Notes: generated by a model not told the origin, from the sequence alone. Shown: positions 88 to 22,844, counted from the stretch's first letter. The stretch: 22,844 bases of DNA from Roseibacillus sp. (GCA_002721695.1 PBLI01000084.1:38912-61755), one strand, 5' to 3'. Program-made: numbers and translations.

Positions 88-1515
<1,428 letters not shown>

Positions 1516-1660
1516 GTCGGCCCCGCTTCGCCCGGGGGGGCAAGAACGTGCTCCGAAATGGGAAAGTGGGCAAGTCACAAGTGGAGGGCCCCCATTGGGC
1601 CGGGAGGGAGAATAATCAGCTAAGGATCTCCTTGCCGGTATTTTGGCGTGAACCGGGGCG

Positions 1661-2983
1661 ATGGGGGCGTATGCTCGCCTCGGCATGTTTGAGGTGCGCG
1701 ACAGACCGCAAATGGTTGAGCGGGCTCTTCTCGTTCGTATCTGTTTCGACAAGCGAGAAGAGGATGAGTCGCGGAGTCTGCTGGCTGAACTGGGCGAGCT
1801 GGTTACCACGCTGGGGATCGGAGTGGTGGATACGGAGCTGGTGCGCGCGCGTGATATGCAGAAGAAGTTCCTCTGTGGAACCGGCAAGGCGGCCGAGGTC
1901 TCCTCCCGGGCCCGGGAGCTCCAGTGCGACTGCATCGTTTTCGACAACGAGCTTGCTCCAAACCAGCAGCGGGAATGGGAAGAGGCCGCCGACATGACGG
2001 TGATCGATCGCGAGGAAGTGATCCTCGATATTTTCGCCCGGCGGGCGCAGACCAAGGAGGCGCGCCTGCAGGTGGAGCTGGCCCGCATGGAATACGCCCT
2101 GCCACGCATGGCCCGCATGTGGGGGCACCTCGACCGGGAAGGGGGAGGTGGATCTGGTGGATCGGCCGCGGCCCGCGGCATGGGGGAACAGCAGATCGAG
2201 GTCGACCGGCGTCTTGCGCGCCGGCGCATCGACCGGATCAAGGCGGACCTTCAGCTGGTGCGCAAGCAGCGGGCCACCCAGCGCAAGGAGCGACAGAAGG
2301 CGGCGGCTCCACATGCTGCAATCGTAGGTTATACCAACGCCGGGAAGTCGACCCTGCTCAACCGTCTGGCGGGGTCGGAGGTTCTGGAAGCTGACATGCT
2401 CTTTGCCACCCTTGACCCCACTACGCGACGAATCGAATTGCCGGATGGCCAGGACCTGCTTCTGACCGACACGGTGGGATTCGTTCGTAATCTCCCTCAC
2501 CGCCTGGTGGAGGCATTCAAGGCGACTCTGGAAGAGGCCGTCCTCGCCGACTTCCTGGTGCACGTCCTTGATGCGGGTGAGCCGGAGCTCGACCGCCTGT
2601 GCGGAACCACCCTTGAGGTTATGGCGGAGCTGGGTGCGGCGGAGAAACCGGTTCTCACCGTCTTGAACAAGGTGGACCTGGTGGAGAATAAGCAGCAGCG
2701 GAGTGCCTTGCAGGCGAGGTTTCCTGATGCGGTCTGTATCTCCGCGCAGAGCGGTGAGGGGCTTGAGGCCCTGCAGCACACTTTTGTGGATTATCTCTCC
2801 AAGGCGGTGACGCGCCGGCGCTACCGCATTCCCCAGCACCGTGGGGATCTGGTGTCCCTCCTCCATGCGGAGGCGAAAGTCCTCGAGACGGAATACGACG
2901 GGAACGATGTCGTGGTGGAAGCACTGGTCAGCAGCGAACTGGAAGGTCGCCTGCGTGGGATGGGCGAGGTTGAGACAGCCTGA
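1661..2983 (+). CDS. hflX: GTPase HflX
   Basis: HflX N-domain (ERALLVRI..., glycine-rich linker GGGGSGGS), then the G-domain with G1 [10 protein letters not shown]3 DTVGF and G4 NKVD. The start may be ATG 1661, 1685 (MFEV..., which matches the E. coli spacing best) or 1712. Confidence 0.9.
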
Positions 2984-8871: not shown

Positions 8872-10563
8872 ATGCAGGCGACGGAATGGATTGTACGCGG
8901 TATTCCCGAGGGCGTGAGGTCCGGGCCGGGGGATGGCCTGCCGTTCATCCTCCGGGTCCTTCTTGCCCAGCGGGGCATCACCGCGGAGGATGAGCTGGAT
9001 TCGTTCCTGCGTCCCCGGCTTCAGGACCTGTGCGACCCCTTCGAGATTCCCGAGATGGAGGCGGCGGTCCAACGCCTCCTTCGGGCCGTGGATGAGGGGG
9101 AGCCTGTGTGCATTTTTGGTGATTACGATGTGGATGGAATCACCTCGGTGACGATCCTGCGAGCGGTCCTGAGCTCCTACGGGCTTGATCCGCAGACCTT
9201 CATCCCGGTCAGGGGAGAAGAAGGCTACGGGTTGAGTGATGCCGCTGTTGAGCGTTGTCTGGCGGGCGGGGTAAAGCCTTCCCTCCTGATCACGGTTGAT
9301 TGTGGGACGGCCTCCGGGCCCCAGATCGAGCGCCTGAGCGGGCGGGGCATTGATGTAATCGTGGTCGACCACCACGAACCCGGAGAGGCGGGGCGCCCGC
9401 CTGCGGTCGCCGTGGTCAATCCCAAACTTGGAGAGGACTACGGCTACCTGTGTTCTGCGGGGGTGGTCTTCAAACTCGCGCACGCGCTCCTCAAGACCCG
9501 GCGCCTTGAGGAAGTCGATCTCCGTGATTTTCTGGACCTGGTGGCGGTGGCCACCATCGCTGATATTGTGCCTCTGGTGGGAGAAAACCGCCTGCTTGTC
9601 CGGCACGGCCTGCGGCGCCTGCCGGGAACTTCAAATCTCGGGCTGCGCGCCCTCATGGAGGTGAGCGGAATGAACGGTCGGGCCACAAGTGCGGACGTCG
9701 GCTTCCGGATAGGTCCCCGGATCAATGCCGCGGGCCGGATGGACTCCCCGGAGGATGCGCTGGCAATCCTCATGACCGATTCCGAGAAGACGGCGGGCAG
9801 CCTTGCGGCGCAGTTGGACGACTACAACCGACAGCGGCAGAAGCACGAGCAGGAGATGTACGAGGAAGCCCTGGCACAGCTGGAGGAGGAATTCGATGAA
9901 GACAAGGACGCAGTCATCGTAGTGGGCTCACGTGGGTGGCACCCCGGGGTGGTCGGAATCGCCGCGTCCAGGCTCATGCGCTACTACCACAAGCCGGCTT
10001 TCGTTGTTTCCTTTGACGAAGGGGGCCTCGGGAAGGGGAGTGGGCGGAGTATTGAAGGGGTCTCGCTTGTCGAGGCCATCGACGCCTGCCGGCCGGTGCT
10101 CGTGGCTGGGGGGGGACACCACATGGCCGCGGGCATCAGTCTTCATGAAGACAGGCTTGGGGAATTCCGGAAGGCCTTCTCGGAGTTTGTGCTCACCCGG
10201 ACTTCGGCGGAGGAGCGCAGGCCGCGCATCCATGTCGATGCGGAAGTGTCGTTTGGGGAACTCTCGCTCGATTTTCTGCGCAGTTACGAACTGCTTCAGC
10301 CTTTCGGGTCCGGGAATCCGCAGCCCGTCTTCATGTCGCGGGAGGTCTGGCTGACTGAATCTCCACGGCGCCTGAAGAACCGGCATCTGAGGCTGTCTCT
10401 GCGGCAGGGAGTTCAGGAACGGGATGCGATGTACTTCGGGGCCGCCGACCGGGAGTTGCCCGACCCCCCCTGGGACGTGGCTTTCACCATCGACCGGAAT
10501 TTCTTCCGTGGGCGCACCTCCCTGCAGGTGAGCGTGCGTGACATCCGCTCGGCGGAGCGGTGA
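8872..10563 (+). CDS. recJ: Single-stranded-DNA-specific exonuclease RecJ
   Basis: DHH motifs (IFGDYDVDGITS, VDCGT, VVDHH) and DHHA1 (GGGHHMAAG), followed by a C-terminal OB-like region. Confidence 0.92.
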   Translation: MQATEWIVRGIPEGVRSGPGDGLPFILRVLLAQRGITAEDELDSFLRPRLQDLCDPFEIPEMEAAVQRLLRAVDEGEPVCIFGDYDVDGITSVTILRAVLSSYGLDPQTFIPVRGEEGYGLSDAAVERCLAGGVKPSLLITVDCGTASGPQIERLSGRGIDVIVVDHHEPGEAGRPPAVAVVNPKLGEDYGYLCSAGVVFKLAHALLKTRRLEEVDLRDFLDLVAVATIADIVPLVGENRLLVRHGLRRLPGTSNLGLRALMEVSGMNGRATSADVGFRIGPRINAAGRMDSPEDALAILMTDSEKTAGSLAAQLDDYNRQRQKHEQEMYEEALAQLEEEFDEDKDAVIVVGSRGWHPGVVGIAASRLMRYYHKPAFVVSFDEGGLGKGSGRSIEGVSLVEAIDACRPVLVAGGGHHMAAGISLHEDRLGEFRKAFSEFVLTRTSAEERRPRIHVDAEVSFGELSLDFLRSYELLQPFGSGNPQPVFMSREVWLTESPRRLKNRHLRLSLRQGVQERDAMYFGAADRELPDPPWDVAFTIDRNFFRGRTSLQVSVRDIRSAER

Positions 10564-10579
10564 GTAGCAGGCAGGACTC

Positions 10580-12601
10580 ATGAGCGCCGGGAAGTCCAGT
10601 CAATCCCTCTCCATTCTGGAGGCCTGTTCCGAAAAGGACCTCGAGGCGCTGAGCGGCGCCGGGATAGATACGCTGGGCGATCTCCTGGACTGGTTTCCGA
10701 GGCGCTATGAGGACCGAAGACGCTTCGATGCCTTTCCCGTGCAGGCCGGTGGGGAACCAGTCTGCCTGCGGGGGCTCGTGGTCGATTCCGCGCGGAAGCG
10801 CTTCGGTGGCCGACGCCAGTTTTACGAGATCGTGATCGAGGAGGGTGGCGACAATGTCCTCTCCACGAGCAAGGTGACCTGTCGATGGTTCAACATGCCC
10901 TACCTGCACCGCATGGTCGCGGTCGGCCACGAAGTGGTGGTTTACGGCAAACCCAAGGAGCAGGGCGGGCGCCTTCTCATCGACCACCCGGAGTTCGAGG
11001 TGGTGCAGGAGTCAGTCGGGCTCTCCATTCATCTTGAACGGATCGTTCCGATATATCGCAACGTGAGCGGAATTCCTCAGAGACGGCTGAGAGAGATGAT
11101 CTACGAGGCCTCGGAGAAGATGGACCCGGCCGAGGTGGAAGCACCCTATGAGATCGACCCCGGATTTCCCCGGGAAGAGGCTTTGCGCGCGGTCCACTTT
11201 CCCGCGGAACTGGAGCGTGCGCGGGAGGCCCGCCGCTACTTTGCGAAGGAAGAATTCTTCCTGCTGCAGGTCCATGTCCTGCGGCGGCGCCAGCAGCATC
11301 TCGAGCACCCCGGGCGGGTGCAGGGCCGCAAGACCGGATTACTGAGCGCCTTCCATGAGAGCCTGCCCTTCGAGCTGACCGCAGCGCAGAAGCGTAGCGT
11401 GCACGAGATCGCGGTCGACCTGCGGAGCGAGCGTCCCATGAACCGTCTCCTCCAGGGCGACGTGGGGTCGGGAAAGACCTTCGTGGCAATGTGTGCGATG
11501 CTGCTCGCGGTGGAGTCCGGGGGCCAGGCGGCTCTGATGGCTCCCACCCAGATCCTGGCCGAGCAGCATTACCTCACCTTCCGCAAGTGGCTGGCTCCGC
11601 TGGGCCTGCGCCTCTCACTGGTGACAGGATCGAAGCGGGAGAGCGATCACCTGGACCTTGCGGGTGACCCCCAGATCGTGATCGGCACCCATGCTCTCCT
11701 CTACGACAGCGTTGAGTTCAGCGATCTTGGACTGGTGGTCATTGACGAGCAGCACAAGTTCGGCGTGGCTCAGCGGGGGCAGCTCATTCAGCAGGGGATC
11801 ATGCCGGATGTCCTCGTCATGACCGCCACGCCGATTCCCCGGACCTTGACTCTGACGATTTACGGGGATCTCGATGTTTCCGTCCTCGATGAACTTCCGG
11901 CGGGCCGCGGCAAGATCGTGACCGGAGTGCGGGTGAAGCCCAAGGTGACGGATGTGACGAGGTTCGTGAAGGAGCAGCTGGTGGAGGGGCGGCAGGCCTA
12001 TCTCGTCTACCCGCTGGTGGAGGAGAGCGGAGCGGTGAAGGCCGGGTCGGTGACCGGCGAGATCGAGAAGTGGCGGAAGCGCTGCAAGGGGTATGAGGTC
12101 GGGCTCCTGCACGGGCAGTTGAAGCCGGAGGAGAAGGAAGACGTCATGAACCGGTTTCGCGACAATGAGATCCAGGTCCTCGTGGCCACCACGGTGGTCG
12201 AAGTGGGCGTGGATGTTCCGAACGCCAACCTGATGGTGATTTACAACGCGGAGCGCTTCGGGCTGGCCCAGCTCCACCAGCTGCGGGGCCGAATCGGAAG
12301 GGGTAAGCACAGGAGTTACTGCGTTCTGGTCACCGACGGGAAGAGCGAGGACGGGCTGAGAAAACTACGGGTGCTTGAGGACACCGGGGACGGATTCAAG
12401 ATAGCGGAGGAGGACCTTGTCCTGCGGGGACCGGGGGAGGTCCTGGGCACCGCGCAGAGTGGCTTGAGCGACCTGCGCTTTGCGGACTTTCTCGCCGATA
12501 CCGCGCTCGTGCGCGAAGCCCGCGCCCTCGCAGAAGAGCTTCTCGAGCGTGATCCGGACCTCGAGGATTATCCGGAACTGCGGGAACGGATACGGGAGTA
12601 G
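10580..12601 (+). CDS. recG: ATP-dependent DNA helicase RecG
   Basis: Wedge domain followed by SF2 helicase motifs: I LLQGDVGSGKT, II VIDEQHKFGV, VI QLRGRIGRG. It starts 16 nt after the recJ stop, so the two genes are probably co-transcribed. Confidence 0.92.
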   Translation: MSAGKSSQSLSILEACSEKDLEALSGAGIDTLGDLLDWFPRRYEDRRRFDAFPVQAGGEPVCLRGLVVDSARKRFGGRRQFYEIVIEEGGDNVLSTSKVTCRWFNMPYLHRMVAVGHEVVVYGKPKEQGGRLLIDHPEFEVVQESVGLSIHLERIVPIYRNVSGIPQRRLREMIYEASEKMDPAEVEAPYEIDPGFPREEALRAVHFPAELERAREARRYFAKEEFFLLQVHVLRRRQQHLEHPGRVQGRKTGLLSAFHESLPFELTAAQKRSVHEIAVDLRSERPMNRLLQGDVGSGKTFVAMCAMLLAVESGGQAALMAPTQILAEQHYLTFRKWLAPLGLRLSLVTGSKRESDHLDLAGDPQIVIGTHALLYDSVEFSDLGLVVIDEQHKFGVAQRGQLIQQGIMPDVLVMTATPIPRTLTLTIYGDLDVSVLDELPAGRGKIVTGVRVKPKVTDVTRFVKEQLVEGRQAYLVYPLVEESGAVKAGSVTGEIEKWRKRCKGYEVGLLHGQLKPEEKEDVMNRFRDNEIQVLVATTVVEVGVDVPNANLMVIYNAERFGLAQLHQLRGRIGRGKHRSYCVLVTDGKSEDGLRKLRVLEDTGDGFKIAEEDLVLRGPGEVLGTAQSGLSDLRFADFLADTALVREARALAEELLERDPDLEDYPELRERIRE

Positions 12602-14851: not shown

Positions 14852-15616
14852 ATGGAAGTCTGGATTGTCGAGGAGGGAGAGAAACGGGGCCCCTACCAGG
14901 CCTACGAAATCCGCGACCGGATCGAGAGGAAAGAACTCGCGGGTAATGAGCTTGCGTGGCACAGGGACCGGGAAGGCTGGATCGAGCTGAGGGAGATGGA
15001 TGCTTTCCGGGCGGAGTTCGACAAGTCACCGCAGGAGCTGGCGAGATCCCATCCGCCTCCGTTGCCGCCTCAGCCCTATCCCTTTCTCCGCTTCTTCGCG
15101 CGCTGGTTTGATGTCTGCCTCTACCTGCTCTTTATTTTCGGGCTGGTGCAGCTCGTGGGGCTCAACCTCTACAACGCCATGGGAGGATCGTTCCGGGCTC
15201 TTTACTTCCTGCCCTTTGTCTGCGTGGAGGCGGCTTTCATCCACCTGACCAAGACAACACCCGGCAAGTTCTTACTCGGAATCCGGGTGGTGACCCCGGA
15301 AGAGAACGCCCTCTCCCTGCAGGCCTCGCTGGTGCGTTCCCTGCGTGCCTACATCGTCGGGCTCGGACTTATGTTCGCGCCGCTCCTTACCGTGATGTGC
15401 CACACCTTCTGCATCTGGTATCTCATGCGTTTCAGCGAGGCACCGTGGGACACCACGGCAAAAACCAGGATCCGGGTAACGGGCCCCCTTCTCTTTCCGG
15501 TCATTCTCTTCATCATGTTTTTTGTCATCATTGTCGCGCTGCTTTCCCTCGTCCTAATGCCCGCCGTATTCCAAGCCTGGGAGGAGCTCAGCGGGCAGAT
15601 GACGGGACTTGGTTGA
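14852..15616 (+). CDS. DUF4339 (GYF-like) + RDD-family integral membrane protein
   Basis: ATG 10 nt after the lolC-like stop, preceded by gagggggg. N-terminus MEVWIVEEGEKRGPYQAYEIRDRIERKELAGNELAWHRDREGWIEL (a DUF4339-type small domain), then a proline-rich linker and 3-4 TM helices with RDD-like residues. Confidence 0.7.
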   Translation: MEVWIVEEGEKRGPYQAYEIRDRIERKELAGNELAWHRDREGWIELREMDAFRAEFDKSPQELARSHPPPLPPQPYPFLRFFARWFDVCLYLLFIFGLVQLVGLNLYNAMGGSFRALYFLPFVCVEAAFIHLTKTTPGKFLLGIRVVTPEENALSLQASLVRSLRAYIVGLGLMFAPLLTVMCHTFCIWYLMRFSEAPWDTTAKTRIRVTGPLLFPVILFIMFFVIIVALLSLVLMPAVFQAWEELSGQMTGLG

Positions 15617-15653
15617 CTCTATCTGTAGCAGCACCATACTCCGGGCAACGCAC

Positions 15654-16241
15654 ATGCCTGGGACGGTCTACTTCGATCTGGAAACACAGCGCAGCTTCAA
15701 CGACGTTGGCGGGTCGTCCAATCTGAGCAAAATGGGTGTCTCGGTGGGGTGCTCCTTCTGCACGGATTCGGGGGAGTACCGGGTTTACCCGGAAGAAGAG
15801 CTGGAAGACCTCGTCCAGCTTCTCACGAGGGCAGAGCTGGTGGTGGGCTACAATCACCTCCACTTTGATTACGGTGTGCTTGAAGGCTACACCGTGCTGG
15901 ATCTCGAATCCCAGACGGTGAACCTCGATCTCATGGTGGACCTGAAGGAGATCCTGGGCCGGAGGATCGGGCTGGGACAGGTCGCGGCGTCCACCCTCGG
16001 AACTGGCAAGACGGCAGTGGGTGTCGATGCCCTCAAGTGGTGGAGAGAGCACAAGGCCGTGGTGGGAGAGCAGGCCCGGAAGCCCGTCACCGCATACAGC
16101 GAGCCGCTCATGAAGATTGCCGAATACTGTGCCTACGACGTGAAGGTGACAAAGTGCCTGCACGAGTACGGACGTCAGCATGGACACGTCAAGTACGACG
16201 ATGGATCGGGGTCGCAGCAGGAGGTTGAGGTGAACTGGTAA
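15654..16241 (+). CDS. DnaQ-like (DEDDy) 3'-5' exonuclease, YprB / RNase_H_2-like
   Basis: ExoI VYFDLET, ExoII VVGYNHLHFDYGVL, ExoIII YCAYDV. A possible TTG start at 15609 would overlap the upstream stop by 8 nt. Confidence 0.65.
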   Translation: MPGTVYFDLETQRSFNDVGGSSNLSKMGVSVGCSFCTDSGEYRVYPEEELEDLVQLLTRAELVVGYNHLHFDYGVLEGYTVLDLESQTVNLDLMVDLKEILGRRIGLGQVAASTLGTGKTAVGVDALKWWREHKAVVGEQARKPVTAYSEPLMKIAEYCAYDVKVTKCLHEYGRQHGHVKYDDGSGSQQEVEVNW

Positions 16242-16453
16242 GGGCCGCATCCCTGTTCGCTTCAAGCAGGCCGGGCGCAGGGTGCCGTTGCCATCCATCC
16301 TATTCCAGTCGGCTCGCCCGAATCTGCTCGAAGCAAGAATTCAGGAACTTCAAACCATCCGGAGATCCCCTGATCGTAGGGGGTTGGTGCGTTGTTCCAG
16401 CGGGTTCCGAAATTCAGGCTTGTTTGTAATGGCATTCTGCCCGCGTTCGCTGC

Positions 16454-17158
16454 TTGTATGCCGGAGCCGTGAAGGAAATATGGGACCTTGCGACCAACGG
16501 ACAGGTGCTTCCGTTTACGCTCCTGTTGATTCCGGTCGCGCTCTACTGGCTCCTGGCGCTGCTGGGGACGCTGGATCTTGACTTTCTGGATGTGGACCTG
16601 GACCAGGATGTCGACGTGAGCGCCAGTGCCACTGTGGACGCGGGTGGGCAGGGGAACGGGCACGGAGACGTCCCCGGCCAGGGCGTGGTGATGAATGTGT
16701 TCCATGGTGCACTCAGGGCGATCAATGCCACCGACGTGCCCGTCATGGTCGTATTTTCCATTCTCATGATCATGATGTGGTTGTGCGCCATGCTTGGAAA
16801 CCTGTGGTTCAATGCGGGTGGAGGGGATGGATTGGGAACGATTATTGGTCTTAGTGCGGTGGCGGGAGGCTTGCTCCTGACCCGCGTGCTTACGGAGCCG
16901 CTGAAGCCGGTCTTCCGGGCCATGAGGGGTGCCGGAACCCCCAATCGCCCGGTGGTGGGCCGCAGCGGCAAGGTTCGCTCGCATGAACTGGACGAGCAGA
17001 GCGGGCAGGTGGAGATCGAGGAAAAGGGAGAGGTTATTTTAATCAACGCGCGTCTGGCGGAGGGGTCCGAGCCCCTGAGCCAGGGGGCGGAGGTGATTGT
17101 CTACGATTACAACGACGAGAGAGGAATTTACTACGTCAGGCACCTGACACCCAGCTAA
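16454..17158 (+). CDS. NfeD-like / YqiJ-family membrane protein with C-terminal OB-fold
   Basis: TM helices (LPFTLLLIPVALYWLLALLG; VMVVFSILMIMMWLCAMLGNLWF; LGTIIGLSAVAGGLLL), then GRSGKVRSHELDEQSGQVEIEEKGEVILINARLAEGSEPLSQGAEVIVYDYNDERGIYYVRHL, a short-NfeD beta-barrel. The start is TTG 16454 or GTG 16469. It lies 30 nt upstream of the flotillin gene. Confidence 0.7.
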   Translation: MYAGAVKEIWDLATNGQVLPFTLLLIPVALYWLLALLGTLDLDFLDVDLDQDVDVSASATVDAGGQGNGHGDVPGQGVVMNVFHGALRAINATDVPVMVVFSILMIMMWLCAMLGNLWFNAGGGDGLGTIIGLSAVAGGLLLTRVLTEPLKPVFRAMRGAGTPNRPVVGRSGKVRSHELDEQSGQVEIEEKGEVILINARLAEGSEPLSQGAEVIVYDYNDERGIYYVRHLTPS

Positions 17159-17188
17159 CCAAACCACGCAAAGACAACTGTTCGACCC

Positions 17189-19219
17189 ATGACTGCACTA
17201 CTACCGAGCCTGCCTCTGGCAAACCAGACCTTGATCATCGTTGGCCTTTCGATAGGGGGCCTCGTGGCGCTCTTCGTCGTCATGGCGATGACCTACGCCG
17301 CGCTCTATCGCAAGGTGAAGAAGGGGACCGCCCTGATCCGGACCGGATTCGGCGGAACCAAGATCGAGTTCAACGGAATCCTGGTCTGGCCCGTCTTCCA
17401 CCGGGTGGAGACCATGGACATCTCCCTCAAGCGGATCGAAATCGACCGGACGGGGAACAATGGCCTGATCTGTCAGGACAACATGCGGGCGGACATCAAG
17501 GTGGCCTTCTTTGTCCGGGTTAACAACGTGGAGGAAGATGTTCTCCGGGTTGCCCAGTCAGTGGGTTGCGAGCGCGCGTCGAGTGAGCCCGAAATCCGCA
17601 ATCTGTTCGACGCAAAGTTTTCCGAGGCCCTCAAGACAGTGGGCAAACGCTTCGATTTCATTGCCCTCTACGAGGACCGGGACAAATTCCGTGACGAGAT
17701 CCTGAAGGTGATTGGAACGGACCTGAATGGCTTTGTTCTTGATGACGCGGCCATTGACTACCTCGAGCAGACCCCGCTCGAGTCCCTCGACCCGGACAAC
17801 ATCCTTGACTCGGAGGGGATCAAGAAGATTACCGATCTGACCGCGGAACAGGCTAAACTTGCCAACAACATCCAGAGGGACAAGGAGAAGGTCATCAAGC
17901 AGCAGGACGTCGAGGCCCGGGAAGCAATTCTCGAGCTGGAACGCCAGCTGGCGGAGACCGAGGCCAAGCAGCAGCGCGAGGTGGAAACGGTGCAGGCCCG
18001 CGAAAAGGCGGAGGCCCTCAAGGTTCAGGAGGAGCAGCGCCAGAAGGCTGAGCACGCGCGCATTGCGGCCGAGGAGGAGATTCAGGTCGCTTCTCAGAAT
18101 CAGGAGCGCCAGGTTCTCGTGGCCCAGCGAAACAAGGAGCGTACCGACGGTGTGGAGCTTGAGCGGGTGGAGCGAGAGCGTATGCTTGAGCAGATTGAAC
18201 GCGAGCGGGTGACCGAGCTTAAGGCCATCGAGAAGGAAAAGGCCGTGGAAGTTCAGAAGAAGGAAATCCAGGACGTGATTCGTGAACGGGTGGCGGTGGA
18301 AAAGACCGTGGTGGAGGAGCAGCAGCGGATCAAGGACACGGAGGAATTCGCCACCGCGGACCGCCAGAAACAGGTCACCGTGACTCTGGCGGAGGCATCG
18401 GCCCAGGAGAAGCTCATCACGGAGGTCAAGGAGGCGGAAGCCAGCAAGCAGGCCGTGCAGCTTGAGGCTGACCAGAAAGCCTACGAGGTTCTCAAGGCTG
18501 CGGAAGCCGCGCGCCAGGCCGCGGAAATGGAGGCTGAAGAGCGGGTTATCACGGCCGAGGCTGAGGAGACTGCCTCGGAGAAGGAGGCGGCGGCCAAGAA
18601 GCTGATCGCCGATGCGGTGGCCAAGGAGGCCGCCGCGGTGGGACTGGGCGAGGCGGACGTCCTCCGCGCCAAGGGCGAGGCGGACGCTCAGGCGATCACG
18701 CAGAAGGCTGAAGCAATGAAGCTCTTCGAAGAGGCCGGCCAGGGCCACGAGGAATTCAAGCTTAAGCTGGAGAAGGATCTCGACGTGGAGCTCGCCGAGA
18801 TTGACGTGCAGCGCCAGATCGCGGAGCAGCAGGCCCAGGTGGTCGGGGAGGCCCTCAAGTCGGCAAACATCGACATTGTCGGTGGCGAGACTGAGTTTTT
18901 CGACCGCATTACCAACGCGATCACCACCGGTAAGGTGGTCGACCGCACGTTGAACAACAGTGAAGTCCTTGAGGACGTAAAAGACACCTTCTTCAATGGC
19001 GATCCCGACTACTTCAAGTCTCAGTTGGCCAGCTGGCTGGGCGATTTTGGGGTTAAGAGCGAGGATCTGAAGAACCTCAGTGTGACAGCGCTCCTTGCGA
19101 GTCTTGTTTCCAAGGCTCGCGGTGAAGACCGGACGCGTCTCGTCGGGCTCATGGGCGCTGCCGAGCGCTTCGGCCTTGGTGAGGCGAGGGCCGCGGACTT
19201 GCTCGAGAAACTTGGGTAG
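17189..19219 (+). CDS. Flotillin / SPFH (band 7) family protein, YqiK-like, with extended E/A/K/Q-rich coiled-coil
   Basis: N-terminal TM, then an SPFH core (LIRTGFGGTKIEFNGILVWPVFHRVETMDISLKRIEIDR...DIKVAFFVRV) and about 350 aa of EA-rich heptad-like repeats. The minus ORF 17558..18748 is an L-rich antisense shadow. Confidence 0.9.
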   Translation: MTALLPSLPLANQTLIIVGLSIGGLVALFVVMAMTYAALYRKVKKGTALIRTGFGGTKIEFNGILVWPVFHRVETMDISLKRIEIDRTGNNGLICQDNMRADIKVAFFVRVNNVEEDVLRVAQSVGCERASSEPEIRNLFDAKFSEALKTVGKRFDFIALYEDRDKFRDEILKVIGTDLNGFVLDDAAIDYLEQTPLESLDPDNILDSEGIKKITDLTAEQAKLANNIQRDKEKVIKQQDVEAREAILELERQLAETEAKQQREVETVQAREKAEALKVQEEQRQKAEHARIAAEEEIQVASQNQERQVLVAQRNKERTDGVELERVERERMLEQIERERVTELKAIEKEKAVEVQKKEIQDVIRERVAVEKTVVEEQQRIKDTEEFATADRQKQVTVTLAEASAQEKLITEVKEAEASKQAVQLEADQKAYEVLKAAEAARQAAEMEAEERVITAEAEETASEKEAAAKKLIADAVAKEAAAVGLGEADVLRAKGEADAQAITQKAEAMKLFEEAGQGHEEFKLKLEKDLDVELAEIDVQRQIAEQQAQVVGEALKSANIDIVGGETEFFDRITNAITTGKVVDRTLNNSEVLEDVKDTFFNGDPDYFKSQLASWLGDFGVKSEDLKNLSVTALLASLVSKARGEDRTRLVGLMGAAERFGLGEARAADLLEKLG

Positions 19220-19302
19220 CCCGGGGGAACTGTGCAGGAGGATAACCCATGAGGTTGCATCACAGGGGCTGGCCTGTCTCCGAAGGGGGCTCCTGATTCA
19301 TC

Positions 19303-22300
19303 ATGCCTGAAGAAACACAGCAGCTTGAAGGCGGTTCCTATGAGGTCATCCGGGACCGTCTGGCGCGGCACGGGAGTGACTTGCGGGGCCGCCTGGACGG
19401 GCTGAACGAGGACCGTAAGGAGCTCTTCGGGGTTGTTGAGAACGAGCTGGTCTCGACCTCGCGGATCGCTACCCAGTTCAATTGCGTGCCGCGGGACATG
19501 ATCGCGGTGGGGGCGAACCGGTTTCTGTTCGGCTACAACATCCAGTTCGGCCTCAAGCAGACGACCAGTGTGTCGGACGTCTTTGCGGCCTACCGGTATG
19601 ACCCGGAAGGTCATGAATTCCATCAGCTCCCGGTTGCGGAGATGCTGAGCGATGCCACCTTCGTGGAGGATTTCCAGTACCTGTACCGCTACTACAAGCA
19701 GACAGTCTTCGTGAAGTTCATGGTCATCGGTCCCAGCCTCTACATGGGGATGCGGATCGGCAAGGCGGTGGAGGATCTCAAGACCTTCAAGTGGCTCATC
19801 AAGGGGGATGGGACGCTGGACTACCTCGGGAACCGCTTTGATCATGAATACGCTTTTCCGTCCCAGCAGGAATTCGAGTGGACCCGTGCCCATCGCGATA
19901 TGCACCGGGGTGGAGAGCATCCCCATATCTCGATCGATGATCGCGTGTTCGTTGAGACGCTTGGTGGCGACTTGACGGTCAAGGTCGAGGACAATACCTC
20001 ATCGGGAGAGGGGATTTACTCCGAACCGGTCACGGACCAGGACCAGACCCTCGACGACGCGGAAATCTTCTACGCCTCGGTCGGTCCGCTGGTCCTGATG
20101 AAGGTCCTTCCCTACCGGGAGGAACTTCATCGCTACCTCGTCTATAACGAAAAGACACGGGTTGTGCACCGCCTTGATGCGATCGGGCACTCCTGCGTGC
20201 TGCTCCCGGACGAGCAGGGACTGATCTTTGCCAATGGATACCTGTTGCTCACGGGAGAGGTGAAGGTGTTCGAGACGGATCTCACGGACATGCGTTTCGA
20301 GCGGCGGATCGCCTCTGCCAACGGAGAGGACTACCTGTTTGTCTTCTACAACCGGCTCAGCGGCGACTATGTCCTGCTCTCCTACAATATCATATCGCAG
20401 ACGGTTGAGACGCCGGTCATCTGCAACGGCTACTCCCTGTTCCCGGACGGCAAGCTGATCTGTTTCAAGGCCGAGGCCGAGGCCCAGAAGCATCACTCCC
20501 TGCAGGTGTGGCAGACCTCCTATCTCAGCGAGGAAGCCCTGAGTGCGGATGCCGAGAGCCAGGATTCCATGCTCTTCAAGATCGGCAACGCCGCATTGGT
20601 CCGCGGAATGGCGGAGTGTCGGGAAGTGCTTGTCCTCCTCGGCAAGGAAGACAGTTACGCCGGACTCTACCTCGACCTCGTCAAGAAGACTGGGGACATC
20701 CTTGATGGCTACTTCTGGATTGCGAAGGAAGAGGCGCACGATCTTGCCGATCCTGTTCGTGAAATCCAGCGCGCCGCCGCCTCGGCAATCGACGAATTTG
20801 ACAAGGTGAAGCGTCTGCGGGAGGGCACGAGGCAGCAGACCACCGCCGTCCGCGGCGCGGTTGAGGAGGTCCTCAAGCAGGTCGCTTATGCGGCGCCCGA
20901 TGACATCTTCGGATTTGTGCATCATCTCACTGAGCTTCGGCGCCGCCGCGGGGAGGTGATCGGGCTGCGTGAATTACGCTATGTCGACACGAGGCTGGTG
21001 GAGGAACTCGAGGAGCAGGTGGTCGAGGCAACCGATAAGTGCTCCAGCCAGACGGTGGCCTTTCTCCTGAAAGAGGAGGCGCTGGACCCCTACCGCGGTG
21101 CGGTGGACGAACAGAAGACCGCGATCGGAAAGCTGAAGAAGGTGACCGAGGCGGACGGGGTGGGCGAAGCCCTCGACACGGCGGGCTCGGAATTGGAGAT
21201 GTTGATTGACGTGGTGAGCAACCTCAAGATCGAGGATGCGACCCAGACCACCGCAATCATCGATGGGATCTCGAGTATCTATGCGACTCTGAATGGAGTG
21301 CGGGCCGAGCTCAAGCAGGTGCGCAGGGATCTCGCGAAGTCGGAGGGGATGGCCCAGTTCAGCGCGCAGATGAAACTCCTGAGCCAGGCGGTGGTGAATT
21401 ACCTGGATCTCTGTGACACGCCTGAGCGCTGTGATGAATACCTCACCAGGCTCATGGTGCAGGTAGAGGAGCTGGAGGGGCGTTTCGCGGAATTTGACGA
21501 GGACATCGAGGAACTCGGAGCCAAGCGGGAAGAGATTTACGAGGCCTTTGAGGGGCGGAAGCAGGCGCTGCTTGAGCAGCGGAACCGTCGAGCCAGTACA
21601 TTGGTCAAGTCGGCGGAACGCATCCTCAGCGGAGTCCAGCACCGAGTGTCCAAGCTGGAAGACCTTAACGATATCAACGGCTACTTCGCGGGGGATCTCA
21701 TGATTGACAAGTTGCGCGACATCATCGCGCAGCTCGGTGCCCTGGGTGACTCGGTGAAGGCCGCTGACGTGCAGACCAAGCTCAATACACTGCGCGACGA
21801 TGCAGTGCGGCAGCTCAAGGACCGCAAGGAGCTCTTCGTGGATGGGGAAGCCGTGCTCCAGTTCGGGCGGCACAGGTTTTCGGTGAACGAGCAGGAGCTT
21901 GAGCTGTCGATCATTCCTCACGACGGGGAGATGTGCTTCCACCTCTCGGGGACGGATTTCTTTGAGCCCGTCCGGGACGAGGGATTCCTGGCTACGAGCG
22001 AAATCTGGGGGCAGGAGATCCTGAGTGAGAACGATGAGGTCTATCGGGTGGAGTGGCTGGTCTACCAGATGCTTCAGGGGAACGATTTCGGAGAGGGAAC
22101 GCTGGAGGACGTGCAGCGCTTCATGCAACCGCGCTATGCCGAGGGTTACACGAAAGGGGTGCATGACGAGGATGCGGTCAAACTGCTGGATGCCCTCCTG
22201 CCGGTCCACCAGGAGGTCGGCCTGCTGCGGTTTGCCCCGCACACCCGGGGAGCGGCCCTGGTGGCGTGGCATGCGGGTGAAGGGGAAGCCCGCGCGAGCC

Positions 22301-22844
22301 TGGCGGCCAAGCTGGCTGCCCATGCCGGGCGTCGCAAATACCTGGGGGAAAAGAACGGCGTGCACGAGTTCACGATGGAGCTCGCGGACTTTCTCGCTCC
22401 CATCCTGGAGCGGAGTTTCCCGGAGGTGGCGGTGGACCGGGCGGCCGAATACCTGTTTGGCGAACTGACCGGGGGACCCGGATTCGTGGTTTCGCGGGAG
22501 GCGGGGGCCCTCTTGCAGCAATTCAGCCACGTGCTGACTGCCAAGCGGGCCCGGAAGTCCTACGACGAGGCACTGGCGCCTTTTGCTGACGACGCCCTGG
22601 GGCGCTACCACGTCGCGAGGGACTGGTTGCAGGGCGTGGAGTCAATGCCTGCTCAGACAGGGTCGGAGGAGAAAGTCGAGCGGGTCCTTCCCACGGATAA
22701 TCTCCGGGAGTGGTATGTTTGCGAGGCAGCCGCTCAACTGGCTCGTGGAGGCCAGATGCATCCGGAGGCCCAAGGAGTCAACCTCGAGGTCGAGGTGCCG
22801 GAACTGGCGGGATCTCATTCCCGCATCGAGCAGCGGACCCTGGT
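19303..22844 (+). CDS. Very large uncharacterized protein, 3'-truncated by the window end (more than 1,180 aa visible); beta-rich N-terminal region followed by a long alpha-helical region; no Walker A seen
   Basis: The open frame runs from ATG 19303 (stop TGA at 19294-19296 just upstream; a G-rich tract aagggggc lies about 12 nt upstream) to the last base with no stop codon. It has strong GC3 codon bias. It is absent from the supplied ORF track only because it lacks a stop in the window. The three minus ORFs covering it (19021..19926, 19999..20925, 20974..22611) are low-complexity antisense shadows. Confidence 0.8.
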   Translation, partial: MPEETQQLEGGSYEVIRDRLARHGSDLRGRLDGLNEDRKELFGVVENELVSTSRIATQFNCVPRDMIAVGANRFLFGYNIQFGLKQTTSVSDVFAAYRYDPEGHEFHQLPVAEMLSDATFVEDFQYLYRYYKQTVFVKFMVIGPSLYMGMRIGKAVEDLKTFKWLIKGDGTLDYLGNRFDHEYAFPSQQEFEWTRAHRDMHRGGEHPHISIDDRVFVETLGGDLTVKVEDNTSSGEGIYSEPVTDQDQTLDDAEIFYASVGPLVLMKVLPYREELHRYLVYNEKTRVVHRLDAIGHSCVLLPDEQGLIFANGYLLLTGEVKVFETDLTDMRFERRIASANGEDYLFVFYNRLSGDYVLLSYNIISQTVETPVICNGYSLFPDGKLICFKAEAEAQKHHSLQVWQTSYLSEEALSADAESQDSMLFKIGNAALVRGMAECREVLVLLGKEDSYAGLYLDLVKKTGDILDGYFWIAKEEAHDLADPVREIQRAAASAIDEFDKVKRLREGTRQQTTAVRGAVEEVLKQVAYAAPDDIFGFVHHLTELRRRRGEVIGLRELRYVDTRLVEELEEQVVEATDKCSSQTVAFLLKEEALDPYRGAVDEQKTAIGKLKKVTEADGVGEALDTAGSELEMLIDVVSNLKIEDATQTTAIIDGISSIYATLNGVRAELKQVRRDLAKSEGMAQFSAQMKLLSQAVVNYLDLCDTPERCDEYLTRLMVQVEELEGRFAEFDEDIEELGAKREEIYEAFEGRKQALLEQRNRRASTLVKSAERILSGVQHRVSKLEDLNDINGYFAGDLMIDKLRDIIAQLGALGDSVKAADVQTKLNTLRDDAVRQLKDRKELFVDGEAVLQFGRHRFSVNEQELELSIIPHDGEMCFHLSGTDFFEPVRDEGFLATSEIWGQEILSENDEVYRVEWLVYQMLQGNDFGEGTLEDVQRFMQPRYAEGYTKGVHDEDAVKLLDALLPVHQEVGLLRFAPHTRGAALVAWHAGEGEARASLAAKLAAHAGRRKYLGEKNGVHEFTMELADFLAPILERSFPEVAVDRAAEYLFGELTGGPGFVVSREAGALLQQFSHVLTAKRARKSYDEALAPFADDALGRYHVARDWLQGVESMPAQTGSEEKVERVLPTDNLREWYVCEAAAQLARGGQMHPEAQGVNLEVEVPELAGSHSRIEQRTL

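Follow-up and report, generated by a model that had tools for sequence, protein, structure and literature searches.

We found that a 22,844-nucleotide (nt) stretch of Roseibacillus sp. DNA (GCA_002721695.1 PBLI01000084.1:38912-61755; the whole stretch is called the window throughout) ends inside a long plus-strand gene for a large ATPase. The gene starts at position 19303 and is annotated here as the last of three same-strand genes, which encode in order a YqiJ/NfeD-like membrane protein, a YqiK-type flotillin, and the ATPase. It is a typical representative of a catalogued and widespread family, stands in the usual operon of that family, and is cut by the window edge. We hold this identity of the gene and its operon to be close to certain (probability about 0.97). 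The ATPase itself would be a cytosolic, ATP-driven remodeler of flotillin/PspA membrane scaffolds, a function that we infer and to which we assign a probability of about 0.5.

Results

The plus-strand frame is the gene

Reading frame +1 contains 1,180 sense codons and no stop between ATG 19303 and the last nucleotide of the window, as the first-pass annotation of this DNA had claimed. The closest upstream in-frame stop is at 19294, which makes ATG 19303 the earliest possible start, and the predicted N terminus (MPEETQQLEGGSYEVIR) lines up with the N termini of 84 homologues. The chance of such a run of open codons had been put at about e^-30; this was conservative, as our own arithmetic (about 60% GC, about 0.032 stops per codon) gives about e^-38. 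Open length by itself is weak evidence in this window because the antisense frames are likewise open for 301 to 545 codons. Most genes of this 60% GC window have a long antisense shadow open reading frame (ORF) opposite them (for example, 343-1623 (+) against 88-2241 (-), a 426-amino acid (aa) ORF opposite the aconitase gene), so ORF length alone is unreliable here.

The gene call is settled by homology and by the substitution pattern, which together we consider decisive. A homology search with the plus-frame product returned 3,944 homologues, one of which (P0001, 1,710 aa) is full-length and 100% identical. P0001 is encoded on two ENA metagenome contigs, L001 and L002; on these near-identical contigs the stop lies 1,590 nt past the window end, giving a whole gene of 5,133 nt, of which the window holds the 5' 69%. 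The L001 sequence spans 22.5 kb of a 29.6-kb contig; over the 13,542 bases shared with the window it shows 94 differences. Within the ORF there are 27 differences, 23 of them at codon position 3; read in the plus frame they comprise 22 synonymous and five nonsynonymous changes, while the three antisense ORFs together show two synonymous and 20 nonsynonymous changes. The pattern is nearly the same for L002, and the count of differences ranges from 26 to 27 across the two contigs. This split indicates purifying selection on the plus frame only.

Codon composition was also compared. GC content at codon position 3 (GC3) is 0.78 in the plus-frame ORF and 0.75 to 0.80 in the neighboring genes, the similarity of bias that had been reported from the first reading. 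In the antisense ORFs the GC peak is at codon position 1, a mirror image of the sense GC3 and the signature of a shadow frame. It could be argued instead that these minus-strand ORFs (the 301-, 308-, and 545-aa entries of the original ORF track, whose coordinates we recovered; Table 1) are the real genes and that the plus frame is open by chance. They are long and have start codons, but their substitution ratio is the reverse of that in the plus frame, their GC content peaks at codon position 1, and the plus-frame product has thousands of homologues. We regard the minus-strand ORFs as refuted by the homologues and the substitution split, and give them practically no chance of being genes. The proposal that a real plus-strand gene was masked by antisense shadows is thus upheld. 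The gene is indeed absent from the ORF track; this is no biological oddity, however, as the track omits ORFs that run off an end.

Table 1 Features of the window discussed in the text
Feature	Coordinates	Strand	Evidence
5' part (first 1,180 of 1,710 codons) of the putative propeller/helical-rod/AAA+ ATPase gene	19303..22844	+	open frame, identical full-length protein, substitution pattern
YqiK-type flotillin, 676 aa	17189..19219	+	hhalign vs E. coli YqiK, identical NCBI entry
YqiJ/YuaF-like (NfeD-type) membrane protein, 229 aa	16469..17158	+	hhalign vs E. coli YqiJ
DUF3686 domain (aa 26-471): N-terminal helix aa 11-42, then about 28 beta-strands aa 48-404	19378..20715	+	
Helical rod aa 423-844, about 420 residues, like spectrin-repeat three-helix bundles	20569..21834	+	
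DUF7902, aa 592-675, within the helical rod	21076-21327	+	
Orphan module aa 845-1180, continuing to about aa 1185 past the window	21835..22842	+	AlphaFold2 model, invariant columns
Antisense shadow ORF, 301 aa	19021..19926	-	0 synonymous/3 nonsynonymous; GC peak at codon position 1; overlaps conserved sense gene
Antisense shadow ORF, 308 aa	19999..20925	-	1 synonymous/10 nonsynonymous; GC at codon position 1 0.78
Antisense shadow ORF, 545 aa	20974..22611	-	1 synonymous/7 nonsynonymous; GC at codon position 1 0.80; product L/V/R/P-rich

The product belongs to the DUF3686-DUF7902-AAA+ family

The first-pass annotation could not recognize the family from the sequence alone. Searches with Pfam and other profiles, which it had recommended, name the family by its combination of DUF3686, DUF7902, and a C-terminal AAA+ module. 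DUF3686 (PF12458) matches along its entire profile (1-448 of 448) at aa 26-471 with an E-value of 4.6e-184 and a score of 612 bits, and DUF7902 (PF25472) matches at aa 592-675 (E 2.6e-27). In P0001 the Pfam families AAA, RuvB_N, AAA_5, and AAA_22 match from aa 1255, with AAA and AAA_5 at aa 1255-1394. On these matches the protein is a member of the DUF3686-DUF7902-AAA+ family, all four family features having been found. NCBI names this family "DNA repair ATPase," and the Pfam/NCBI wording also includes "ATPase involved in DNA repair."

At 50% identity the family falls into 1,370 clusters with E ≤ 1e-3, of which 436 have E ≤ 1e-30, and its full-length members are 1,600 to 1,930 aa long. It is collinear with the query, single matched stretches covering aa 5-1115 or more down to 28 to 30% identity. 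Over the whole visible region, identity across phyla is 28 to 51%, while the other verrucomicrobial orthologues found are 57 to 88% identical and the proteins of cultured Roseibacillus species 62 to 64%. The close homologues of both the ATPase and the flotillin are all from Verrucomicrobiota, which marks the source of the window as a Roseibacillus-like verrucomicrobium. Relatives in Roseibacillus ishigakijimensis, in Rubritalea, and on plasmid pQBR103 (PQBR_RS00470) have the same domains in the same order, the same length class of 1,600 to 1,900 aa, and an upstream flotillin; the window copy differs from them in no structural respect, only by its truncation at the window edge.

The ATPase gene is linked to flotillin and YqiJ-like genes across phyla

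The two upstream proteins were identified by profile-profile comparison. The 676-aa protein is 100% identical to the NCBI entry "flotillin [Roseibacillus sp.]," which comes from a metagenome-assembled genome. It has a single N-terminal transmembrane (TM) segment (aa 8-40), an SPFH domain, and a long coiled coil rich in Glu and Ala. Alignment of its family against E. coli YqiK by hhalign gave a probability of 100% (E 2.2e-41, 400 aligned columns). For the family of the 229-aa protein, which has three TM segments by hydropathy, the corresponding comparison with E. coli YqiJ gave 96.5% (E 1e-9). Neither protein has a Pfam match even at E 10, Band_7/Flot and DUF1449 included. NCBIfam yields for the 676-aa protein only a weak match to FloT; among PDB profiles this protein finds QmcA only weakly (E 5e-4), and the best match of the 229-aa protein, to the YuaF soluble domain (2k14), is weak as well (E 0.27). 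Since profile-profile comparison alone recovers the YqiK/YqiJ homology, this clade is under-annotated by Pfam. Gaps of 30 and 83 nt separate the genes of the cluster, the stretch 15500-19500 contains no terminator-like site, and a promoter scan returned one promoter-like site, which is not above chance expectation. These scans fit co-transcription of the three genes, although they are not evidence for it.

When one genome of each species was scanned, at least 589 loci encoding the family were found. By record title, the best 80 of these at least 589 loci include about 24 from Verrucomicrobiota, 15 from Planctomycetota, 32 from Bacteroidota, five from Clostridia, and three from Desulfobacterota. 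ORFs were called throughout the loci and searched with iterated profiles of the window's neighbor proteins, and linkage to flotillin was counted over the 63 loci whose upstream sequence extends for 2.3 kb or more. A flotillin homologue lies upstream of the ATPase gene, on the same strand, in 60 of the 63 loci and in five phyla (counted as Verrucomicrobiota, Planctomycetota, Bacteroidota, Clostridia, and Desulfobacterota). The distance between the two genes is within about 550 bp in 44 of the 60 and within 2.4 kb in the rest. In 36 of 42 loci the gene directly before that for flotillin is YqiJ-like. These counts point to a near-obligatory linkage of the ATPase gene to flotillin and an NfeD-type partner. 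The flotillin-less exceptions are L037, L038, and L044 (Desulfobacteraceae, Cytophagaceae, and Bacteroidia metagenome-assembled genomes), and neither a flotillin nor a YqiJ-like gene was detectable in at least 7 kb upstream of them. Unbiased clustering of all ORFs in the loci revealed no further widely conserved neighbor.

Some genes do recur in part of the family. Among Bacteroidota, a PspA/IM30 protein (234 aa) was found in 16 loci and a CesT_Tir_1 protein (131 aa) in 14, and in 14 Bacteroidota loci a divergent HTH_3 plus Peptidase_S24 (LexA/CI-like) regulator (for example, L062 4163-4918 (-)) precedes a CesT-PspA-YqiJ-flotillin-ATPase cluster; the loci in which these additions were checked with Pfam are from Flavobacteriia. 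This arrangement suggests cleavage-controlled induction in those lineages. There is no divergent HTH-S24 regulator near the ATPase cluster in the window. Small same-strand genes that are unrelated between loci stand between the flotillin and ATPase genes in at least 16 loci. Among them is a gene for a PD-(D/E)XK_3 protein (139 aa, E 5e-33) in five loci (L004 9516-9935 (+), L007, L008, L011, and one more); L029, L031, L060, and L064 have other small genes in this gap. We rejected these genes as a fourth conserved component, as they are variable and unrelated between loci.

The family also occurs on 13 of 72,556 plasmid records, those of Pseudomonas, Proteus, Vibrio, Halomonas, Streptomyces, and Deinococcus among them, and has no match in 50,697 phage records. 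In pQBR103 of Pseudomonas fluorescens SBW25 (L084, record 85112-97641) the trio is joined to a longer same-strand cluster, for which the RefSeq order is PspA, rhomboid, DUF2491, DUF350, DUF1190, glutathionylspermidine synthase, a hypothetical protein, an SPFH protein, and "DNA repair ATPase." A Streptomyces plasmid shows the same trio and carries, in RefSeq order, a hypothetical protein, flotillin, and "DNA repair ATPase."

This distribution bears on the possibility that the protein is the sensor and NTPase of an anti-phage or conflict system, with the propeller as sensor of an invader and the ATPase as trigger of a membrane-directed abortive infection through flotillin or PspA. Large propeller-plus-NTPase proteins are common in defense systems, and PspA is a phage-shock protein. 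The presence of the family on some megaplasmids and the variable small genes, PD-(D/E)XK_3 included, that some loci have between flotillin and ATPase would also be in keeping with such a role. However, PADLOC-DB yields for the ATPase only LmuB (E 3e-5, over the coiled-coil stretch) and for the flotillin no match, no effector domain is recognizable, and the plasmid and phage counts (13 of 72,556 and 0 of 50,697 records) are low. The gene order is stable over at least five phyla, unlike that of variable defense islands, and the surroundings in the window are housekeeping genes (aconitase, HflX, LpxK, RNase PH, RecJ, and RecG). We therefore consider a defense role improbable and rejected a mobile-element reading as well; the defense-island angle of the first-pass annotation found no support in the weak LmuB match, the lack of phage matches, or the housekeeping neighbors.

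The cluster is immediately preceded, on its own strand at 14852-16241, by genes for a GYF_2 plus RDD membrane protein of 254 aa and a 195-aa member of the RNase_H_2 superfamily. Both are unconserved neighbors, each seen only in two same-organism contigs. The other genes of the window encode aconitase, HflX, a YkuD transpeptidase, a PpiC rotamase, a pilin-like protein, RNase PH, LpxK, RecJ, RecG, a glyoxalase, and an FtsX/MacB permease, next to the GYF/RDD and RNase_H_2-family proteins already mentioned. Thus, the remainder of the window is ordinary chromosomal content.

The N-terminal 1,185 residues form a putative propeller, a helical rod, and an orphan module

An AlphaFold2 model of aa 1-1180, built from an 85-sequence alignment, reached a mean predicted local distance difference test score (pLDDT) of 81.2 and a predicted template modeling score (pTM) of 0.43. 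It places beta-strands at aa 48-404, in agreement with the earlier description of residues 1 to about 430 as beta-rich, and the strands of DUF3686 are consistent with a beta-propeller of about seven blades. The stretch from about 430 to 1180, which had been called predominantly helical, is so at aa 423-844 and 915-1148; a small beta unit at aa 852-889 interrupts it. Structure searches with the model returned propeller and spectrin-like matches, together with weak matches of the propeller-plus-helical layout to IFT-A, nucleoporins, and clathrin at TM-scores of about 0.1. A propeller followed by a long helical rod, as modeled, would be suited to protein binding. Hydropathy analysis found no TM segment in the full-length ATPase, which extends to the whole protein what had been noted for its visible part, and the product is accordingly predicted to be cytosolic.

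The orphan module that follows the rod consists, in the model, of the small beta unit at aa 852-889 and about 10 helices (aa 915-1148). Profile searches with aa 845-1185 matched neither a Pfam family nor a PDB entry, and on the same grounds we rejected the assignment of this module as an HD-type or other known domain. The motif G952-x-H954-D955-x-D957 (nt 22156-22173) is invariant in 59 homologues of 32 to 51% identity and in a 15-sequence sub-alignment. The GxHDxD site may be metal-binding or catalytic. Residues E909, R982, and E1141 accompany the motif in the module.

The C terminus is an AAA+ module with a conserved nucleotide site

The first-pass annotation had found no P-loop in the visible part and had placed any enzymatic domain past the window. 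Both statements proved correct: there is no P-loop in aa 1-1180, and the AAA+ module begins about 75 residues past the window end, with AAA+ matches from aa 1255 and Walker A at aa 1274-1281. A second AlphaFold2 model, covering aa 1151-1710 (pLDDT 76, pTM 0.61), shows the AAA+ module, then a helical tail, then a disordered Lys-rich C terminus. Walker A (SPPGYGKT, aa 1274-1281, with Ser in first position), the sensor 1 residues G-N-P (aa 1389-1391), and PxMLxNR (aa 1402-1408), which has an arginine at the finger position, are each invariant in the 59 homologues. The motifs lie on the expected strands of the model, in which Walker B and sensor 1 are separated by a beta-hairpin (aa 1364-1377). 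By these sequence criteria the AAA+ nucleotide site is intact and strongly conserved. The Lys-rich disordered tail (RKKTAKKKAAKKKA; L001 15038-15090, P0001 aa about 1680-1697) varies among homologues and could bind acidic lipids or nucleic acid.

With a hairpin modeled at this position, the module falls, by the accepted division of AAA+ clades, in the pre-sensor-1 beta-hairpin superclade, not in classical AAA. The classical AAA clade (Cdc48/VCP, Vps4, FtsH) is marked by a Walker B of the form hhhhDE, a second region of homology, and the lack of a pre-sensor-1 hairpin; a separate comparison with it likewise spoke against membership, as the Walker B motif here is D-D and the hairpin is modeled. 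Sequence matches to VCP are confined to the P-loop (aa 1268-1326), and the AAA_5 score of 22.7 bits is borderline against a cut-off of 22. In Foldseek searches the module matched RuvB, ClpA, MCM, NorQ/CbbQ, and Lon with E-values of 1e-5 to 4e-6, no clade being clearly preferred.

Among these matches are members of the MoxR/RavA/NorQ (AAA_5) group, and a function as a MoxR-type chaperone can be considered, in which the ATPase would mature or insert a specific client protein or cofactor and flotillin would be a mere membrane platform. Our ATPase resembles this group in its weak end-to-end AAA_5 match, its NP sensor-1 motif, and its structural matches to NorQ, CbbQ, and RavA. However, those matches are weak and no better than the ones to other AAA+ clades, RuvB, ClpA, and MCM among them, the protein is far larger, its 1,250-residue N-terminal extension has no MoxR counterpart, and no VWA-domain partner, the usual MoxR companion, was found among the conserved neighbors. 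We consider a MoxR-type function unlikely, with some small chance of being correct. Of comparable standing is a structural role, in which the protein would be a spectrin-like sub-membrane scaffold that tethers flotillin domains and the ATPase would be a slow assembly switch. The helices that resemble spectrin repeats over about 420 residues, a Walker B that is D-D throughout the family, and the weak matches to the coat or scaffold proteins IFT-A, nucleoporins, and clathrin would suit this role, whereas the TM-scores of those coat-protein matches are only about 0.1, and the invariance of Walker A, sensor 1, and the finger-position arginine argues for real nucleotide turnover.

The family name raises a further possibility, a DNA-repair ATPase that would act as a RuvB-like or SbcC/SMC-like motor on DNA. 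Besides the NCBI and Pfam names, RuvB supplies the best Foldseek matches of the AAA+ module (E about 4e-6), there is a weak PADLOC match to the SMC-like LmuB over the coiled-coil region, and 14 Bacteroidota loci have the divergent HTH plus S24-peptidase (LexA/CI-like) regulator. In the window, recJ (563 aa) and recG (673 aa) stand side by side at 8872-12601, 7 to 10 kb upstream of the ATPase gene. This adjacency recurs only in the same-organism contig L001 and in 0 of the other 79 loci, so it looks coincidental, and we rejected it as a DNA-repair link. The module matches RuvB no better than it does ClpA, MCM, NorQ, or Lon; the protein has no N-terminal P-loop head; its matches include no nuclease, helicase, or DNA-binding family; no SbcC, Rad50, or SMC chain was matched in the PDB by sequence; and all conserved partners are membrane proteins. 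A function in DNA repair is thus very improbable. The name "DNA repair ATPase" probably derives from coiled-coil similarity to SbcC-type COGs, an origin echoed by the LmuB match.

Discussion

SPFH proteins form large cage- or dome-shaped membrane oligomers, such as QmcA-YbbJ and the human flotillin 44-mer dome. FtsH, an AAA+ protease, cooperates with the HflK/C cages, and AAA+ ATPases remodel ESCRT-III/PspA polymers. We know of no ATPase that acts on flotillin assemblies in any organism. Against this background, the gene described here is real, its architecture and ATPase motifs are in place, and its order with the neighboring genes is conserved. We infer in addition that the protein oligomerizes, that it contacts flotillin/PspA, and that it has remodeling activity. 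In the mechanism that we propose, the AAA+ modules would oligomerize, probably as a hexamer, and the propeller-tipped rods would reach the membrane-anchored flotillin/NfeD-like assembly, plus PspA where it is encoded. The protein would then use ATP hydrolysis to build, open, or take apart the scaffold, or to pull clients from it, during membrane or envelope stress.

The closest functional analogy is HflK/C-FtsH, in which an SPFH membrane scaffold is likewise paired with an AAA+ ATPase. FtsH, however, is a membrane-anchored, classical-clade AAA protease, whereas our ATPase is predicted to be cytosolic, lacks a protease domain, appears to belong to another AAA+ superclade, and has a 1,250-residue N-terminal extension. 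The family resembles Vps4/ESCRT-III and PspA/IM30 systems in that an AAA+ gene is linked to that of a membrane-remodeling polymer, PspA being co-operonic in 16 loci and in pQBR103. In contrast to Vps4, it has no MIT domain, is assigned to a non-classical clade, and carries the pre-sensor-1 hairpin and the D-D Walker B, and the locus studied here has no PspA.

Several points weigh against an ATP-driven scaffold remodeler. Walker B (D1342-D1343; L001 14024-14029) is D-D, not D-E, in all 59 homologues, and hydrolysis may consequently be slow or switch-like instead of motor-like. The top Foldseek matches of the AAA+ module, at E about 4e-6, are to RuvB, so that a DNA motor stands among the best matches. 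The proposed role offers no explanation for the GxHDxD module, which makes another, possibly enzymatic, activity possible. The contact between the ATPase and flotillin/PspA is itself predicted. Three of the 63 loci have no upstream flotillin gene, and neither the window nor the 22.5 kb of L001 contains a CesT/Tir or PspA gene. Finally, our literature search found no experiment on any member of the ATPase family, the sole description found being the computational one of Ravi et al. 2024 (mSystems, PMC11237479).

That study describes PspA/flotillin operons, with Dokdonia donghaensis as an example, in which a "Betapropeller+Coiled-coil+AAA-ATPase" follows a YqiJ/YuaF protein and a Band-7/flotillin protein (PMC11237479). 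Its full operons join CesT/Tir-PspA with three further genes, abbreviated operons without PspA are distributed more widely, and a role in the assembly and remodeling of membrane complexes is proposed. Our window shares with the published operon the propeller, coiled coil, and AAA+ combination, the flotillin, and the adjacent three-TM YqiJ/YuaF-type gene. The full form has CesT/Tir-PspA and a divergent HTH-S24 regulator, and the window has neither; because the CesT/Tir-PspA pair is missing, the window is the abbreviated form of this computationally defined operon. We recovered the full layout (divergent HTH-protease, CesT_Tir, PspA, and the trio) in related Flavobacteriia loci. A study of Shewanella SO1376/SO1377 and a paper on SPFH evolution treat the YqiJ/YqiK pair only. 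The ESCRT and Psp phyletic papers contain no mention of the DUF3686-DUF7902-AAA+ ATPase, and a literature search on DUF3686 and DUF7902 returned no mention.

The remodeler that we favor can be extended to a more specific proposal, in which the family would be a dedicated ATP-driven remodeler or disassemblase of YqiK-type flotillin domes and co-encoded PspA polymers, a bacterial "Vps4 for SPFH scaffolds." Its spectrin-like arms, tipped by the propeller, would grip the dome, and the GxHDxD module would add an enzymatic or metal-binding step not recognized before. We offer this version tentatively and think it rather doubtful.

At the level of the window the meaning of our finding is small: it supplies the correct gene call for an ORF dropped by a mechanical list, and the family has entries in Pfam and RefSeq and a description in one comparative-genomics paper. 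The residual interest lies in the family, an ATPase of about 1,700 residues present in at least 589 species genomes of many phyla, tied to flotillin, and bearing an orphan invariant motif. Its current name, "DNA repair ATPase," is probably misleading. The well-studied megaplasmid pQBR103 provides a tractable system for its function, and as a conserved partner of flotillin the ATPase would offer a handle on what SPFH/flotillin scaffolds do in bacterial cells and how they are assembled and disassembled.

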